This document shows, piece by piece, positions 43,184-48,886 of a stretch of DNA of 64,000 nucleotides. Each line of letters begins with the position of its first letter. The first letter of the stretch is position 1. This stretch comes from a phage. The notes below the pieces were generated by a model that did not search any database, was not told where the DNA came from, and was given only the letters and a program-made list of their open reading frames with translations. The position numbers and the translations under genes were made by a program. The DNA lies in NCBI GenBank assembly GCA_012343875.1, contig GCA_012343875.1_3924.1. The stretch is one strand, 5' to 3'.

Positions 43184-43259
43184 TGGAGAATCCGAAGGGA
43201 CTCGAACCCTTATAAACCTGTTTTGCAGACAGGCACATAGCCATTTCTGTCACGGATTC
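43184..43259 (-). tRNA. tRNA-Cys (GCA)
   Basis: Hand-folded: acceptor GAATCCG/CGGATTC, anticodon stem CCTGT/ACAGG with loop CTGCAAA, T-arm AAGGG-TTCGAGT-CCCTT, encoded CCA. Confidence 0.7.
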
Positions 43260-43263
43260 AAAT

Positions 43264-43356
43264 TGGAGGAAGATACCAGACTTGAACTGGTACACCGATT
43301 TCTCAGCTACTGGCAGTTTAGCAAACTGCTCCCTTACCTTTTAGGGTTAATCTTCC
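43264..43356 (-). tRNA. tRNA-Ser (GCT), type II
   Basis: Acceptor GGAAGAT/ATCTTCC, anticodon loop TTGCTAA, long variable arm, T-loop TTCAAGT, CCA; about 93 nt. Confidence 0.65.
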
Positions 43357-43357
43357 A

Positions 43358-44092
43358 TTATTTCTGTAATGCGTTCTTCATTTCTGGTGTTGCAATAGCA
43401 TCAATTACACCAGTTTTACAAGCATCATCAAACCAGTCTGGTAAGATACCTGCTAAGAACCCATTGATATTCGTTTTAAGGTACTCTGCAATAAGGGCAG
43501 CTTCTTCTTCAATCATCTGCACAACTTCATCTGCATAAGCTGTAATCTTCGAGATACCTTCATTAATCTTACTAACAGCTTGGTTAGCTAAATCAGAAAT
43601 AGTATCAAGATCTTTGTCAATAGCGTCTTGTAAATCACTTAATACATCATTAACACCGTCTAGTGCACTGTTAATCGTATCAATAGCTTTTTGACCATAC
43701 TCTGTAGCAACACCCATAATACCACTAAATGGTGTACAACCAACTTGTTCACCTGCTGCACCCATAACATTGGAATAACCTTTTGCTACCTGCATACGTG
43801 ATGAAAACTCATCAATGGATTTTTGACCGTAATCTGTCAGTGTTTTGGTGGTTGATGTAGTGCTTGTTAGACTCGTGGTAAAGCTGTTAAGCAGAACTGT
43901 TGTAAGTCCAGCAGCAACAAGCTTATCTTTTACTGTAGGGTCTGATACAGAACTAATAGAGCTTACAAGTGATGTAGAGGCAGCTACGGTTCCACCGAGA
44001 ACTGCTGCACCAGTAATAAGGGGGTTAGAAAACCCTTTACCAGTTTTTAAGAGATTAAAAATCTCCTTACCTTGTTCTGTCATCTCTTTCAT
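43358..44092 (-). CDS. hypothetical protein with hydrophobic segment and coiled-coil region
   Basis: Track ORF 43358..44155 trimmed to internal ATG 44092 to avoid overlap with tRNA-Phe; segment LITGAAVLGGTVAASTSLVSSISSV. Confidence 0.45.
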   Translation of the reverse strand: MKEMTEQGKEIFNLLKTGKGFSNPLITGAAVLGGTVAASTSLVSSISSVSDPTVKDKLVAAGLTTVLLNSFTTSLTSTTSTTKTLTDYGQKSIDEFSSRMQVAKGYSNVMGAAGEQVGCTPFSGIMGVATEYGQKAIDTINSALDGVNDVLSDLQDAIDKDLDTISDLANQAVSKINEGISKITAYADEVVQMIEEEAALIAEYLKTNINGFLAGILPDWFDDACKTGVIDAIATPEMKNALQK

Positions 44093-44108
44093 TAAGCACC
44101 TTTGAAAT

Positions 44109-44184
44109 TGGTAGTCCAGTGGGATTTGAACCCTCTTCTCATGTTTTTCAGACACGCGCTTTAACCATATAAGCTACTTGGACT
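44109..44184 (-). tRNA. tRNA-Phe (GAA)
   Basis: Anticodon stem-loop CGTGT-CTGAAAA-ACATG, T-loop TTCAAAT, CCA; ends approximate. Confidence 0.6.
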
Positions 44185-44190
44185 ATAAAT

Positions 44191-44266
44191 TGGGGTGACC
44201 TACGGGATTTGAACCCGTATAGACCATGTTCACAGCATGGGTCATTACCATTTATGATAAGGCCAC
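44191..44266 (-). tRNA. tRNA-His (GTG)
   Basis: Anticodon stem CCATG/CATGG with loop CTGTGAA, T-arm CGGG-TTCAAAT-CCCG, CCA. Confidence 0.65.
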
Positions 44267-44297
44267 ATTTAAGGACTCTCGTAAGAATCCTTAGAAG

Positions 44298-44373
44298 TGG
44301 CAGCGGCATAAGGATTTGAACCTTAATAAGACAGCTTCAGAGACTGCTGCATTGCCAGTTATGCTATACCGCT
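44298..44373 (-). tRNA. tRNA-Gln (CTG)
   Basis: Acceptor AGCGGTA/TGCCGCT, anticodon loop CTCTGAA, T-arm TAAGG-TTCAAAT-CCTTA, CCA. Confidence 0.6.
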
Positions 44374-44378
44374 AAATT

Positions 44379-44457
44379 TGGTACTCCATATCGGATTCGA
44401 ACCGATACATAACACAGATTTTAAGTCTGGCCTCTCTGCCAATTGGAGTAATGGAGC
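44379..44457 (-). tRNA. tRNA with anticodon TAA (Leu by anticodon; structure atypical)
   Basis: T-arm ATCGG-TTCGAAT-CCGAT, anticodon loop CTTAAAA; variable region only about 7 nt. Confidence 0.45.
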
Positions 44458-44459
44458 AT

Positions 44460-44535
44460 TGGCGGGGGATGTTGGAATTGAACCAACTTCTTCGATTTCA
44501 AAGACCGAGGTTTTAACCTTGTAAACTAATCCCCT
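44460..44535 (-). tRNA. tRNA-Gln (TTG)
   Basis: T-arm GTTGG-TTCAATT-CCAAC, anticodon stem TCGGT/ATCGA with loop CTTTGAA, CCA. Confidence 0.5.
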
Positions 44536-44543
44536 TTAAATCT

Positions 44544-45101
44544 TTACTTTCTCAGTGGATGAATAAAGAATGCCAACATAACTCTTTCCCTTGAGAATGC
44601 TCTTTCTTCTGGGACAACACTTTTTAGTTTCCATCCAATATAAATTCTCCAGTAAAATTGTTTACCAAAGATTTTAATTGATGGGATAAAAGCGAATAAT
44701 CCCCAAGCATTACTGTTCCACATTAGTAGATAACCTGTCTGATTATCTTCAGGGTCAGAACTTACGTTGATATTACCTTTCCACTTAGTAACATCTTTTA
44801 CATCTCTTCCTAATACATGGTAAGAGAAGTTATAAGCTTTGTTTCTCCAGAGCCATCCGACTCTTTGCATGTAGACACCTAGTTTACCAATCCATCTGAT
44901 ATTAGCCCATCTTTTAACGTGACCTTCATCACCATCAATTGGGTTGTCATATGTCTCCATCCATCTGAACCCGAAAGGTAAGTGTCCTTTCTTCTCACTG
45001 TAGAATGGAACTACAAAAGGTGCTAAGATAACTGCTAAGATTGCTGCAAATGGCTCTAACAAAGCTAAGAAAATCCATGAAGCATACTTCAAATATCTCA
45101 T
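44544..45101 (-). CDS. hypothetical membrane protein (185 aa) inside tRNA array
   Basis: N-terminal hydrophobic stretch WIFLALLEPFAAILAVILAPFVVPF; Trp-rich. Confidence 0.45.
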   Translation of the reverse strand: MRYLKYASWIFLALLEPFAAILAVILAPFVVPFYSEKKGHLPFGFRWMETYDNPIDGDEGHVKRWANIRWIGKLGVYMQRVGWLWRNKAYNFSYHVLGRDVKDVTKWKGNINVSSDPEDNQTGYLLMWNSNAWGLFAFIPSIKIFGKQFYWRIYIGWKLKSVVPEERAFSRERVMLAFFIHPLRK

Positions 45102-47557: not shown

Positions 47558-47572
47558 AATATCACCAACGAA

Positions 47573-47649
47573 TTGGAGGTTCAGATGGGAATCGAACCCA
47601 CATTCATAGGGCTTATGAGACCCTTGCATTACCTTATCTGCGACTGAAC
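47573..47649 (-). tRNA. tRNA-Met (CAT)
   Basis: Perfect acceptor GGTTCAG/CTGAACC, anticodon stem AGGGT/GCCCT with loop CTCATAA, T-loop TTCGATT, CCA. Confidence 0.7.
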
Positions 47650-47653
47650 CATA

Positions 47654-47729
47654 TTGGTAGAAGTGGAGGGATTCGAACCCATCGCCTGTCAGATTAAAAG
47701 TCTGCCGCATCACCATTCTGCTACACTTC
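47654..47729 (-). tRNA. tRNA-Lys (TTT)
   Basis: Anticodon stem CAGA/TCTG with loop CTTTTAA, T-loop TTCGAAT (same weak T-stem as the Lys-CTT gene), CCA. Confidence 0.55.
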
Positions 47730-48156
47730 CATTAAATTATCTTTGTAGATAAGCTACCCAGACTTGCTTAAGGTCTGTAGCGATGTGCCTTTTTGGGTTT
47801 AAATCTAGAATTTACCCATTCACCCTTTGTGGTCGCATACTCACAAGTAAGCTTAATAACTTATCTACAAAGGTAATTACCAGACCGTTGTTTATCATCT
47901 TAAGTGCTACCATTACACCAACTCGACATCTGCCGAGTGAAGGAATCGAACCTTCGCCTTTTCTTTACCGGAGAAATAGATTGTTTAAGTTTTGCTGTAA
48001 ACGGCCTTCTGTAAATTTGTTGAGCCAGACCAAGTTTTAAATTTTCAAAATTAAATTGGCTTGAAATTTCATACATTCTTGCTGTATTTGGTCTTCTGCT
48101 CCCTTAAAGAATACTCGTAAGAACTCTTTAAGGGAGGGGCTAAATAGCCCTCTCAA

Positions 48157-48234
48157 AATTGGCGGTTACAAAGGGATTTGAACCCTCATCATCTCCCGTG
48201 ACAGGGGAGTATTTTAACCAGATTAAACTACATA
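48157..48234 (-). tRNA. tRNA-Asp (GTC)
   Basis: Perfect anticodon stem CTCCC/GGGAG with loop CTGTCAC, T-arm GAGGG-TTCAAAT-CCCTT, CCA. Confidence 0.7.
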
Positions 48235-48239
48235 ACCTT

Positions 48240-48327
48240 TATTGGTGTGCCGTGTAGGAGTCGAACCTACCGAGTCTCAATGACAAGGGATTTACAGTCC
48301 CCACCGCTACCATCTACGGGATAACGA
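48240..48327 (-). tRNA. tRNA-Tyr (GTA), type II
   Basis: Anticodon stem GGGGA/TCCCT with loop CTGTAAA, long variable arm, T-arm GTAGG-TTCGACT-CCTAC, CCA; about 88 nt. Confidence 0.65.
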
Positions 48328-48396
48328 CACATTTAATTTCTATTCAGGCTAAGGACTTGCACCTTACAAATCGGTGAGCAATCGCTTCTCTCCTAA

Positions 48397-48473
48397 ATTT
48401 GGCGGTTAGTCAGGGATTCGAACCCTGTGCCATTCGCTTAACAGGCGACCGCACATACCTTATGTGCTTCCTA
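48397..48473 (-). tRNA. tRNA-Asn (GTT)
   Basis: Anticodon stem TCGC/GCGA with loop CTGTTAA, T-arm CAGGG-TTCGAAT-CCCTG, CCA. Confidence 0.6.
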
Positions 48474-48556
48474 ACCATGTTTAGTATTACCAGACCGTAT
48501 CTTTCAATTTTTCCGCTAAAAATTTAATAAATGTTGCTGTAAACGGTCTTCTGTAA

Positions 48557-48633
48557 ATTTGGAGGCGGGTGCAGGAGTCGAACCTGCCGATACCATGCTA
48601 ATGAGACATGTGAGACGCCCTTTCTCTATACCC
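48557..48633 (-). tRNA. tRNA with anticodon CAT (Met, or Ile2 if lysidine-modified), second copy
   Basis: Anticodon stem CATGT/GCATG with loop CTCATTA, T-arm GCAGG-TTCGACT-CCTGC, CCA; 1:72 pair mismatched. Confidence 0.6.
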
Positions 48634-48724
48634 GCAATTCTTAATGACCAGACCAAATCTCTTCTTTGTCCGATTTACCTTCAGATGAATAAGATTAAGT
48701 TTGCTGTAATTGGTCTTCTGTCAA

Positions 48725-48802
48725 AACTGGCGTTCCAGAAGGGATTTGAACCCTCAAATATCCACTTTGAAAGAGTGGTGACTTTACCATTTTGTCTACT
48801 GG
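48725..48802 (-). tRNA. tRNA-Glu (TTC)
   Basis: Perfect acceptor GTTCCAG/CTGGAAC, anticodon stem CCACT/AGTGG with loop CTTTCAA, T-loop TTCAAAT, CCA. Confidence 0.7.
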
Positions 48803-48809
48803 AACATTA

Positions 48810-48886
48810 ATTTGGTCTCTGTTGGAGGACTTGAACCTCCGGCCTTACCGCCCCAAACGGAACGCTCTACCAAGCTGAGCTAAACA
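48810..48886 (-). tRNA. tRNA-Pro (TGG)
   Basis: Canonical D-arm TAGCTCAGCTTGGTAGAGC, anticodon loop TTTGGGG, T-arm GGAGG-TTCAAGT-CCTCC, CCA. Confidence 0.7.

Follow-up and report, generated by a model that had tools for sequence, protein, structure and literature searches.

Why does a phage carry transfer RNA (tRNA) genes for nearly all amino acids, and what is encoded in the spacers that separate them? The purpose of phage tRNA arrays has been debated for 50 years. The question is raised here by a window of 64,000 nucleotides of phage DNA (contig GCA_012343875.1_3924.1 of assembly GCA_012343875.1), which contains, between positions 43184 and 48889 of the minus strand, an array of 26 tRNA genes headed by the gene of a Ro60-like protein. 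In our reading, to which we assign a probability of about 0.8, the region is a Felix O1-like tRNA operon whose main effect is codon supplementation and which also carries a Ro60-like protein and Y-like RNA system. The array itself brings nothing new; the spacer RNAs are the part worth an experiment. Phage tRNA arrays and bacterial Ro60-Y RNA particles are both of unsettled function, and here both would belong to one operon.

The tRNA genes, as called by ARAGORN with default settings on the whole window, are listed below from the head of the operon to its end. Of these, 24 also pass the gathering score (29 bits) of the Rfam tRNA family RF00005, at 33-63 bits.

48813-48889, minus strand: tRNA-Pro (tgg), first of the operon, Rfam 57.7 bits
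48728-48805, minus strand: tRNA-Glu (ttc)
48560-48636, minus strand: tRNA with anticodon cat, initiator-like, below the Rfam cut-off, aligned with E. coli metZ
48400-48476, minus strand: tRNA-Asn (gtt)
48243-48330, minus strand: tRNA-Tyr (gta), class II with long variable arm, below the RF00005 cut-off, marked as pseudo in the Felix O1 RefSeq record
48160-48237, minus strand: tRNA-Asp (gtc)
47655-47730, minus strand: tRNA-Lys (ttt)
47574-47650, minus strand: tRNA with anticodon cat, elongator-Met-like (G1:C72, U73)
47003-47078, minus strand: tRNA-Ile (gat)
46679-46755, minus strand: tRNA-Arg (tct), missing from Felix O1
46351-46440, minus strand: tRNA-Ser (tga), the sole tRNA without encoded CCA
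46018-46094, minus strand: tRNA-Leu (tag), 77 nt, without long variable arm, Moogle-type allele
45935-46010, minus strand: tRNA-Lys (ctt), without host counterpart
45853-45928, minus strand: tRNA-Ala (tgc), with G3:U70
45772-45846, minus strand: tRNA-Gly (tcc)
45689-45764, minus strand: tRNA-Thr (tgt)
45518-45592, minus strand: tRNA-Val (tac)
45439-45516, minus strand: tRNA-Leu (caa), 78 nt, without long variable arm
45358-45433, minus strand: tRNA-Arg (acg)
44460-44535, minus strand: tRNA-Gln (ttg)
44379-44457, minus strand: tRNA-Leu (taa), 79 nt, without long variable arm
44298-44373, minus strand: tRNA-Gln (ctg)
44191-44266, minus strand: tRNA-His (gtg), no encoded G-1
44109-44184, minus strand: tRNA-Phe (gaa)
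43264-43356, minus strand: tRNA-Ser (gct)
43184-43259, minus strand: tRNA-Cys (gca), last of the operon

ARAGORN finds no tRNA gene outside this region in the 64 kb. Nineteen amino acids are represented: Leu three times (taa, caa, tag), Ser, Gln, Arg, Lys and Met(cat) twice, and Cys, Phe, His, Val, Thr, Gly, Ala, Ile, Asp, Tyr, Asn, Glu and Pro once each. The genes follow one another head to tail, in several blocks with spacers of only 2-8 nt, on the strand of the flanking genes and between the Ro60-like gene and the genes of the terminase. Of the 26, 25 encode their own CCA; the remaining one, Ser-tga, ends in ...GCC followed by T. A first-pass annotation, made from the letters alone, had described about 27 tRNA genes, all on the minus strand, most with encoded CCA, covering nearly all 20 amino acids and including three Leu-type anticodons and a possible Trp. 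ARAGORN, a check that it had itself named, bears out the array, its strand, the CCA ends and the listed anticodons, while the number comes down to 26 and the amino acids to 19, Trp being the missing one. The single Trp candidate (cca, 91 nt, 48347-48437) overlaps tRNA-Asn and emerges only when the ARAGORN threshold is lowered to 70%, amid about 20 other plainly spurious calls; we rejected it.

Polycistronic tRNA operons with interspersed small RNAs or open reading frames (ORFs) and homing endonucleases are also present in the virulent coliphages T4 and T5; these clusters are unrelated in sequence, and that of T4 has 8 tRNAs only. We know of no Y-like character of the T4 species 1 and 2 RNAs. 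The relatives of the array are found closer by. The window is that of a Felixounavirus (subfamily Ounavirinae), a Felix O1-like phage, in agreement with its stated phage source. A 6-kb query spanning the array finds 405 phage records, of which 197 match over at least 80% of the query and 286 at 90-99% identity; nearly all belong to the genus Felixounavirus, from phages of Escherichia, Salmonella and Shigella, and the best-matching ones are 94-97% identical across 90-96% of the query. Gene order and flanks are as in Felix O1, MET-P1-301 and Moogle. Escherichia phage MET-P1-301 (PV700625) has 26 annotated tRNAs in an order identical to that of the window, and Citrobacter phage Moogle yields 25 with default ARAGORN, only the Tyr tRNA being missed, which is annotated in the Moogle record. 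Felix O1 (AF320576 / NC_005282) likewise yields 25, lacking Arg-tct, and has two additional HNH genes. In the farther Ounavirinae Erwinia phage M7 and Pectobacterium phage Wc4-1 the arrays are related yet reshuffled, and the M7 array includes a Trp tRNA.

The Felix O1 genome paper (Whichard et al. 2010, PMC3185647) described the cluster with the 22 tRNAs called at that time and discussed its codon usage; as in the window, the cluster lies between an 'RNA-binding protein' gene and the terminase, and strand, anticodon order and interspersed HNH genes are likewise shared. Shigella phage Sf14 (Ross and Doore 2025, PMC12482277), which belongs to the genus Mooglevirus and is about 85% identical to the window, has 26 tRNAs for 19 amino acids in the same gene order, with largely the same anticodon loops, an odd CTCATTA loop included, and the same hypotheses on array function were tested computationally for it. 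The Sf14 study contains no report of short Leu tRNAs, of the features of the initiator-like cat tRNA or of spacer RNAs, and the word 'variable' occurs nowhere in its full text. Every feature that could be tested thus places the array in the Felix O1-type cluster. It is no new finding, such a cluster having been published in 2010, annotated in deposited genomes and analysed for Sf14 in 2025, which the first-pass annotation had missed.

For codon usage we compared 17,605 codons of the long ORFs of the window with 14,748 codons of 42 annotated E. coli K-12 genes. The G+C content of the phage is 39%, and its third codon positions are A or T in 68% of cases vs 43% in the E. coli sample. Watson-Crick cognate codons of the phage tRNAs are enriched in the phage (mean log2 ratio of relative synonymous codon usage, RSCU, +0.44 vs -0.39 for the other codons; one-sided Mann-Whitney p = 0.03), as in AGA (14.9x; 18.1 vs 1.2 per thousand), ACA (4.7x), TCA (3.7x), AAG (2.5x), CTA (2.4x) and TTA (2.1x), with CCA also shifted. 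Twelve of the phage tRNAs have a U34 anticodon, cognate to A-ending codons, and as a whole the phage tRNAs favour the A-ending codons that the phage overuses, in agreement with both published analyses (PMC3185647, PMC12482277). Adaptation by codon usage, which had been proposed beforehand, is thus supported, while the proposed host of different codon usage is not called for: the mismatch is that of an AT-rich phage with GC-neutral E. coli or Salmonella.

By strict wobble the phage set decodes 75% of the phage codons; coverage rises to at most about 95% (51 of the 61 sense codons) on the assumption that in four-codon boxes U34 can read codons ending in U as well, and to about 90% with Gly-UCC left out of this assumption. 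Beyond the set lie Trp, used at 12.4 per thousand phage codons, and the codons GGC, ACC, GTC, CTC, GCC, TCC, CCC, CGG and ATA. Because Trp and these nine further codons are never covered, we interpret the array as supplementing the host pool rather than replacing it. It would be read as one or few long transcripts, which host RNase P and 3' processing enzymes would cut into tRNAs with CCA already encoded, and host synthetases would charge the products. The discriminator bases (U73 in Cys and Gly; A73 in Pro and all three Leu; C73 in His; G73 in Gln, Asp, Asn and Glu) and the identity pairs of the ARAGORN structures (G3:U70 in Ala, C1:G72 in Pro) appear, for most of the phage tRNAs, consistent with E. 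coli rules. The main effect would be to top up rare host tRNAs for phage mRNAs, especially the late ones, and a secondary effect would be to maintain translation if host tRNAs fall or are cleaved.

Since tRNAs are stable, those of the host should outlive a short lytic cycle, and this general consideration speaks against the view, unlikely in our estimate, that the array replaces the host tRNA pool after destruction of the chromosome and that late translation then runs on phage tRNAs (the 'all-destructive' proposal made for Sf14). The near-complete set would suit such a role, given its coverage under the extended U34 reading, and so would the RSCU of 0.00 for AUA in the structural block (4.1 per thousand in the phage codons), which fits a missing AUA reader; in Sf14 the tRNA adaptation index of the late genes is highest with the phage pool alone (PMC12482277). 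The uncovered Trp and nine other codons and the 75% coverage by strict wobble argue the other way, as does the Felixounavirus Bas63, whose tRNAs are mostly non-essential on four laboratory strains (PMC11482910). Another account, available as a published model (van den Berg et al. 2023, PMC10264068; see also PMC11555353), holds that the main job of the array is escape from defences that cut or deplete tRNAs (PrrC, PARIS AriB, retron effectors, VapC, colicin-like toxins), the phage copies being resistant by changes or simply replenishing what is destroyed. We regard it as possible but doubtful. When the anticodon loops of the window, taken from ARAGORN, are compared with the Shigella host loops in Table 8 of PMC12482277, 13 of 25 deviate, that of His among them, with most of the changes at positions 32 and 38, and the initiator-like cat tRNA, with its altered anticodon arm, could replace a VapC-cleaved tRNA-fMet. 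The Ro60-like gene heading the operon counters a defence system in Bas63 (PMC11482910), and the Ro60/YrlA operon of Salmonella responds to tRNA cleavage, YrlA having been suggested as a possible competitive inhibitor of an anticodon nuclease (PMC7790460). At the best-known targets of E. coli nucleases, however, namely Lys-UUU, Tyr, Asn, Asp and Arg-ACG, the phage loops equal those of the host, and loop mutation, as one way to the escape from tRNA-targeting defences suggested earlier, finds no support there. The dedicated study of Sf14 rejected the hypothesis (PMC12482277), the window holds no sign of which defences its hosts carry, and a set for 19 amino acids exceeds what is needed for evading any known nuclease.

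Codon supplementation itself has a number of observations weighing against it. The enrichment of cognate codons is modest, and GGT, GCT, GTT and ACT are heavily used yet have no Watson-Crick tRNA, as likewise pointed out for phage-favoured codons of Felix O1 (PMC3185647); the dispensability of the Bas63 tRNAs counts here as well. Promoter-like matches are no commoner than in shuffles (20 found vs 20.6 expected), for which reason we make no claim about the transcription start. The Tyr tRNA (48243-48330) and the cat tRNA at 48560-48636 stay below the RF00005 cut-off; in an Rfam scan by E-value the former is recovered only as a weak tRNA-Sec match and the latter is not seen. Other tRNAs depart from host identity rules. 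A long variable arm is a hallmark of bacterial tRNA-Leu (85-87 nt), and the three Leu tRNAs have only 77, 78 and 79 nt, with variable loops of 4-7 nt. In E. coli G-1 is the chief identity element for histidyl-tRNA synthetase, and tRNA-His (44191-44266) has T at -1 opposite C73, so that G-1 is not encoded. Both cat tRNAs carry U73, and one of them U37. Because of these departures in the His, cat and Leu tRNAs and the two Rfam failures, some members of the array may be poorly charged or serve in another role.

These unusual tRNAs keep other features of their class. The Leu tRNAs retain A73 and a class II D-arm, whose stem has 3 bp and whose loop, of 11 nt, is of the AAUUGGCAGA or AAUUGGYAGA type; for comparison of length, E. 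coli leuW has 85 nt and the Leu(taa) tRNA of Wc4-1 has 87 nt and a long arm. Wc4-1 carries one long and one short Leu tRNA. The orthologue of tRNA-His in Erwinia phage M7 has G at -1, while the Felix O1 copy is flagged as a pseudogene in RefSeq. The cat tRNA at 48560-48636 has initiator features in its U1xC72 mismatch, G2:C71, C3:G70, G4:C69 and A11:U24; on the other side, its anticodon stem is CAUGU/GCAUG instead of one with GGG/CCC, and U37 and U73 stand where A37 and A73 would be expected of an initiator. The D-arm of its M7 counterpart is close to that of E. coli metZ, with a D-loop 2 nt shorter and one stem base different, and the U37/U73 combination is kept across the Ounavirinae. The Sf14 orthologue is not called fMet by tRNAscan-SE (PMC12482277). 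Published analyses handle tRNAs of this type as plain Met tRNAs. That one of the cat tRNAs is a tRNA-Ile2 was judged unlikely because AUA is almost unused by the phage; neither of them resembles E. coli ileX. In the Leu(tag) slot (46018-46094; compared with 5280-5357 of locus L001 and 5813-5890 of locus L002 in relatives) the allele of the window is shared with Moogle, and those of Felix O1 and MET-P1-301 are shared with Wc4-1. Because the window thus differs from its closest relatives in the same slot, the alleles suggest that individual tRNA genes are exchanged like cassettes while the array as a whole is conserved.

We now turn from the tRNAs to the Ro60-like protein encoded at the operon's head and to the RNAs that occupy some of the tRNA spacers, both of which had gone unnoticed in the first-pass annotation. 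In the list below, R1 is a covariance model built from five sequences of the YrlA-like element and R2 is a second model; 'motif' refers to a 20-nt motif described further on.

49055-50470, minus strand: gene of the Ro60-like protein, 471 amino acids, DUF2828 plus DUF7788/vWA, MIDAS DxSxS at residues 279-283 (Pfam, phrog_850, AlphaFold2, Foldseek)
48640-48727, minus strand: Y-RNA-like stem-loop 1, short, filling the spacer between the Glu and cat tRNAs (R1 36.1 bits, E = 4e-7; R2 49.8 bits; motif)
48482-48559 or 48560, minus strand: Y-RNA-like stem-loop 2, short (R1 55.3 bits, E = 1.3e-11; R2 55.5 bits; motif)
48019-48105, minus strand: Y-RNA-like stem-loop 3, short (R1 28.3 bits, E = 2.6e-5 with filters off; R2 33 bits; motif)
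47872-48018, minus strand: YrlA-like RNA, a putative permuted tRNA mimic in the 429-nt gap between tRNA-Asp and tRNA-Lys(ttt) (fold, covariation)
47741-47872, minus strand: long conserved hairpin, CUUUGUAGAUAAG ... CUUAUCUACAAAG (alignment A4, RNAalifold)

The 471-aa protein is named 'RNA-binding protein' in both PHROGs (phrog_850) and RefSeq. An AlphaFold model from the single sequence was discarded (predicted local distance difference test score, pLDDT, 44), and the alignment-based AlphaFold2 model from 42 homologues (pLDDT 88.3, predicted template modelling score 0.88) was used instead. When this model is compared with the Protein Data Bank (PDB) by Foldseek, the seven best matches are full-length Ro60/TROVE chains, all with probability 1.00, and only isolated vWA domains follow. 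The full-length matches 9KOP, 2I91, 9NFA, 9NEP and 1YVP, which include the Ro60 of Thermus phage phiLo (9KOP) as well as Xenopus and human Ro60, have E = 1.6e-8 to 2.2e-6 and query TM-scores of 0.54-0.64. The predicted structure consists of a ring of HEAT-like repeats plus a vWA domain, and the MIDAS residues D279, S281 and S283 are invariant across the 42 homologues. As far as the model goes, the protein has the Ro60 fold without detectable Ro60 sequence similarity. A 2024 preprint on PhageMaP (PMC11482910) describes a protein of the same kind, Bas63 gp130, which is Ro60-like, is encoded directly upstream of the tRNAs and counters the Ppl defence; set side by side from the published description, the two agree in kind and in position.

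The largest of the spacer RNAs, at 47872-48018, is YrlA-like in architecture. It is enclosed by a long-range stem, UUAC-AGA-AGGCCGU ... ACGGUCU-G-GUAA (48014-48001 with 47888-47877), within which come in order a small V hairpin (47976-47960), a T-arm GAAGG-UUCGAUU-CCUUC (47955-47939), a closed acceptor-like hairpin (47938-47921) and, after U and G, a D-arm GUGU-AAUGGUA-GCAC (47918-47904). The closed hairpin, of 7 bp and with a 4-nt loop and no CCA, stands in place of an acceptor stem. To judge from the sequence, this is the YrlA order of T-arm, closed acceptor-like hairpin and D-arm within an enclosing 5'/3' stem. Three versions of the acceptor-like hairpin occur, ACUCGGC/GUCGAGU in Felixounavirus, ACACGU/GCGUGU in Suspvirus and some Mooglevirus, and ACCCUUC/GAAGGGU in Moogle, each of them fully paired and hence compensatory. 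We found the element in 252 phage records, hardly any of which annotate it.

The three short elements share with the YrlA-like RNA the bulged closing stem and ACAGCAA, and in model R1 they lack its tRNA-like part; they read UGAC-AGA-AGACCAA-UUACAGCAA ... UUGGUCU-G-GUCA (stem-loop 1), UUAC-AGA-AGACCGU-UUACAGCAA ... ACGGUCU-G-GUAA (stem-loop 2) and GAGC-AGA-AGACCAA-AUACAGCAA ... UUGGUCU-G-GCUC (stem-loop 3). The common pattern of the four RNAs is CAGAAGRCC..WWACAGCAA pairing with GGUCUG in the bulged stem, and the 64 kb hold exactly four copies of the 20-nt motif CAGAAGRCCNNWWACAGCAA, all of them on the minus strand within 47992-48720, vs 0.03 expected. All four elements share the strand of the Ro60-like gene and lie 0.3-1.2 kb downstream of it. 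The YrlA-like RNA is followed immediately by the hairpin at 47741-47872, which has a perfect outer stem of 13 bp (CUUUGUAGAUAAG/CUUAUCUACAAAG); this hairpin shows compensatory changes in Suspvirus and Mooglevirus, and the Y-like covariance model does not match it.

Relatives of these RNAs were searched for in 80 viral contigs with relatives of the protein, 75 of which have proteins only 38-47% identical to the 471-aa one. In the distant contigs R1 finds full-length matches with T-arm, closed hairpin, D-arms such as GCUCAGUUGGUAGAGC, closing stem and CAGCAA, carrying many compensatory changes. Among 19 aligned sequences 96.9% of the cells pair, vs 65% when shuffled and about 40% when the partners are slid, and both sides have changed in 28 of 32 pairs, in an alignment that was fitted to the model. 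An independent analysis of 16 sequences with MAFFT and RNAalifold recovered the closing stem, T-arm, acceptor-like hairpin and D-arm, with compensatory changes in 19 of 22 pairs. R2 gives 45 matches, spread over 31 of the 75 distant contigs; all 45 share the strand of the protein gene, and many abut it. The strongest, full-length and at 47-96 bits, are clear of any tRNA gene. Erwinia phage M7 has no Ro60-like gene, and its two R2 matches, of 32-35 bits, fall on tandem tRNAs; we treat them as false positives, and for this reason matches below about 40 bits should be discounted. It may be added that distant contigs with a DUF2828 Ro60-like gene (locus L039, 1353-1676; locus L030, 11696-11922; ten IMG/VR loci) usually have tRNA clusters on the same strand; one such contig also has a permuted transfer-messenger RNA and another a group I intron.

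The M7 matches bring out the alternative that has to be weighed here, namely that the four Y-like elements are no functional RNAs but remnants of tandem tRNA genes along with processing spacers, next to a Ro60-like gene by coincidence. Tandem tRNAs do mimic YrlA in covariance searches, as Chen et al. 2014 (PMC4201824) warned, and three of the four elements are modest stem-loops of ordinary folding energy (z about -1). On the other hand, the acceptor-like strands pair with each other across a loop of 4-8 nt, without CCA, and covary in three lineages, ARAGORN finds no tRNA at any of the four sites, and the 20-nt motif is common to all four and found nowhere else in the 64 kb. The retention of the element in 252 phage records and the distant relatives of 47-96 bits, adjoining the homologous gene with 45 of 45 on its strand, likewise argue against decay and coincidence, and we consider this explanation very unlikely.

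How far the pair can be equated with known particles is a matter of several likenesses and differences. The module order of YrlA has been described in Salmonella, Mycobacterium and mycobacteriophages (Chen et al. 2014, PMC4201824), and documented phage pairs of Ro60 and Y RNA include mycobacteriophages, CcrColossus, Bacillus phage G and Thermus phage phiLo (PMC4201824, PMC12135203), the last having a Ro60 with Yrl1 and Yrl2 (PMC12135203, PDB 9KOP). The window resembles these in the predicted HEAT-repeat ring and vWA domain with MIDAS, in RNA encoded nearby on the same strand, in the order of closing stem, V hairpin, T-arm, closed acceptor-like hairpin and D-arm, and in having several Y-like RNAs at one locus. 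The differences concern sequence families and tell against the equation. In Pfam the protein matches DUF7788, DUF2828 and, weakly, VWA_2, and not TROVE; neither its single sequence nor the 42-sequence profile has a meaningful match among solved structures in the PDB, and there is no match in NCBIfam. The RNAs have CAGAAGRCC..(W)WACAGCAA with GGUCUG and lack the Ro-contact motif of YrlA, GNCGAAN0-1G; GGCGAAG occurs only within the T-stem of the YrlA-like RNA and is lost in Felix O1. Rfam assigns them no family (a YrlA model in Rfam 15 being unconfirmed): scans by E-value of the array and of a 481-nt gap gave no match of Y RNA or YrlA type, only chance matches and a 22-bit partial tRNA match at 47872-48018. 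The window RNAs also differ from known Y RNAs in being spacers inside a tRNA operon. With fold, neighbourhood and architecture in agreement and sequence families not, the putative protein-RNA pair is best called a divergent phage form of the Ro60-Y RNA particle.

For Felixounavirus we found only the Ro60-like protein published, its Y RNAs being merely guessed: the Bas63 authors proposed that gp130 works with Y RNAs and that some of the tRNA genes are possibly Y RNAs (PMC11482910). They suspected annotated tRNA genes, whereas our candidates lie in unannotated spacers and the 26 tRNAs of the window look like tRNAs. Chen et al. 2014 searched only genomes in which a TROVE protein is annotated (PMC4201824), and the window protein carries no such annotation. 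We found no paper locating Y RNAs in Felixounavirus, in a literature search that was incomplete and did not cover the list by Chen et al. of 22 phages with YrlA.

Because the Y-like RNAs lie inside a tRNA operon, tRNA processing would set their ends; processing on both sides would release the four spacer RNAs, which probably bind the Ro60-like protein. We lean, with some caution, towards the operon being a combined tRNA and Ro60/Y-RNA module, in which four spacer Y-like RNAs released in this way load onto the DUF2828 protein, a pair that recurs in many unrelated viral contigs, mostly beside tRNA genes. The particle could possibly recruit host polynucleotide phosphorylase (PNPase), as has been shown for phiLo, or possibly act as a decoy or in quality control tied to tRNA damage, as discussed for rsr-yrlBA-rtcBA of Salmonella (PMC7790460).

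The remaining features of the region are the candidate signals of transcription and the protein genes that interrupt the array.

48916-48945, minus strand: promoter-like TTGACA-18-TAAAGT with extended -10 TG, a consensus match only, 27 nt upstream of tRNA-Pro
47072-47536, minus strand: HNH homing endonuclease gene (phrog_2255, E = 2.5e-34)
45098-45340, minus strand: small conserved ORF, 80 amino acids (phrog_14202, PHROGs)
44544-45101, minus strand: gene of a DUF7338 protein, 185 amino acids, 'putative membrane protein' in relatives (Pfam E = 1.2e-61)
43358-44092, minus strand: gene of a DUF7217 protein, 244 amino acids (Pfam E = 9.7e-89)
43087-43146, minus strand: hairpin resembling an intrinsic terminator, followed by U6 (fold energy, sequence)
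42998-43021, minus strand: second terminator-like hairpin (43021-43004) with T-run

Two further statements of the first-pass annotation hold at these positions. The strong downstream terminator is represented by the hairpin 43146-43093 (-24.3 kcal/mol, z = -5.2, no shuffle being as good) followed by U6, and the interruption of the array by protein genes, one of them for an HNH endonuclease, is confirmed by the match to phrog_2255; the HNH ORF has no Pfam match at E <= 0.01. On the minus strand a 12-bp hairpin (49013-49044), with an embedded promoter-like TTGACA-17-TAATAT, directly follows the stop codon of the Ro60-like gene. Hairpins with the loop UUCUUACGAG occur in two array spacers (44267-44297 and 48094-48125, minus strand) and may be processing or protein-binding sites; the window has three exact copies of UUCUUACGAG, the third at 33340 on the plus strand. 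The minus-strand spacers 46095-46350, 46756-47002 and 45593-45688 are conserved between genera, and their folds are more stable than those of shuffled sequence (z = -4.0, -4.2 and -3.2, respectively); a fourth, 46441-46678, has z = -0.9 and terminates in a T-arm-like GGGGUUCAACUCCUC. None of these four spacers matches the Y-like covariance model, and the ORFs that some records place in these large spacers overlap with tRNA genes and match no family.

The system is a tractable one, in that the phage grows on E. coli K-12 and Salmonella and a knockout library exists for the relative Bas63. The short Leu tRNAs, the tRNA-His without G-1 and the initiator-like tRNA with U37 and U73 offer cheap tests of the rules of host synthetases and formylase, and the coordinates of four candidate partner RNAs make the guess of the Bas63 authors directly checkable by experiment. 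If the proposed pairing is true, Ro60-Y RNA particles would extend to a large phage protein family in which they have gone unrecognised, and would be tied functionally to phage tRNA arrays and counter-defence.

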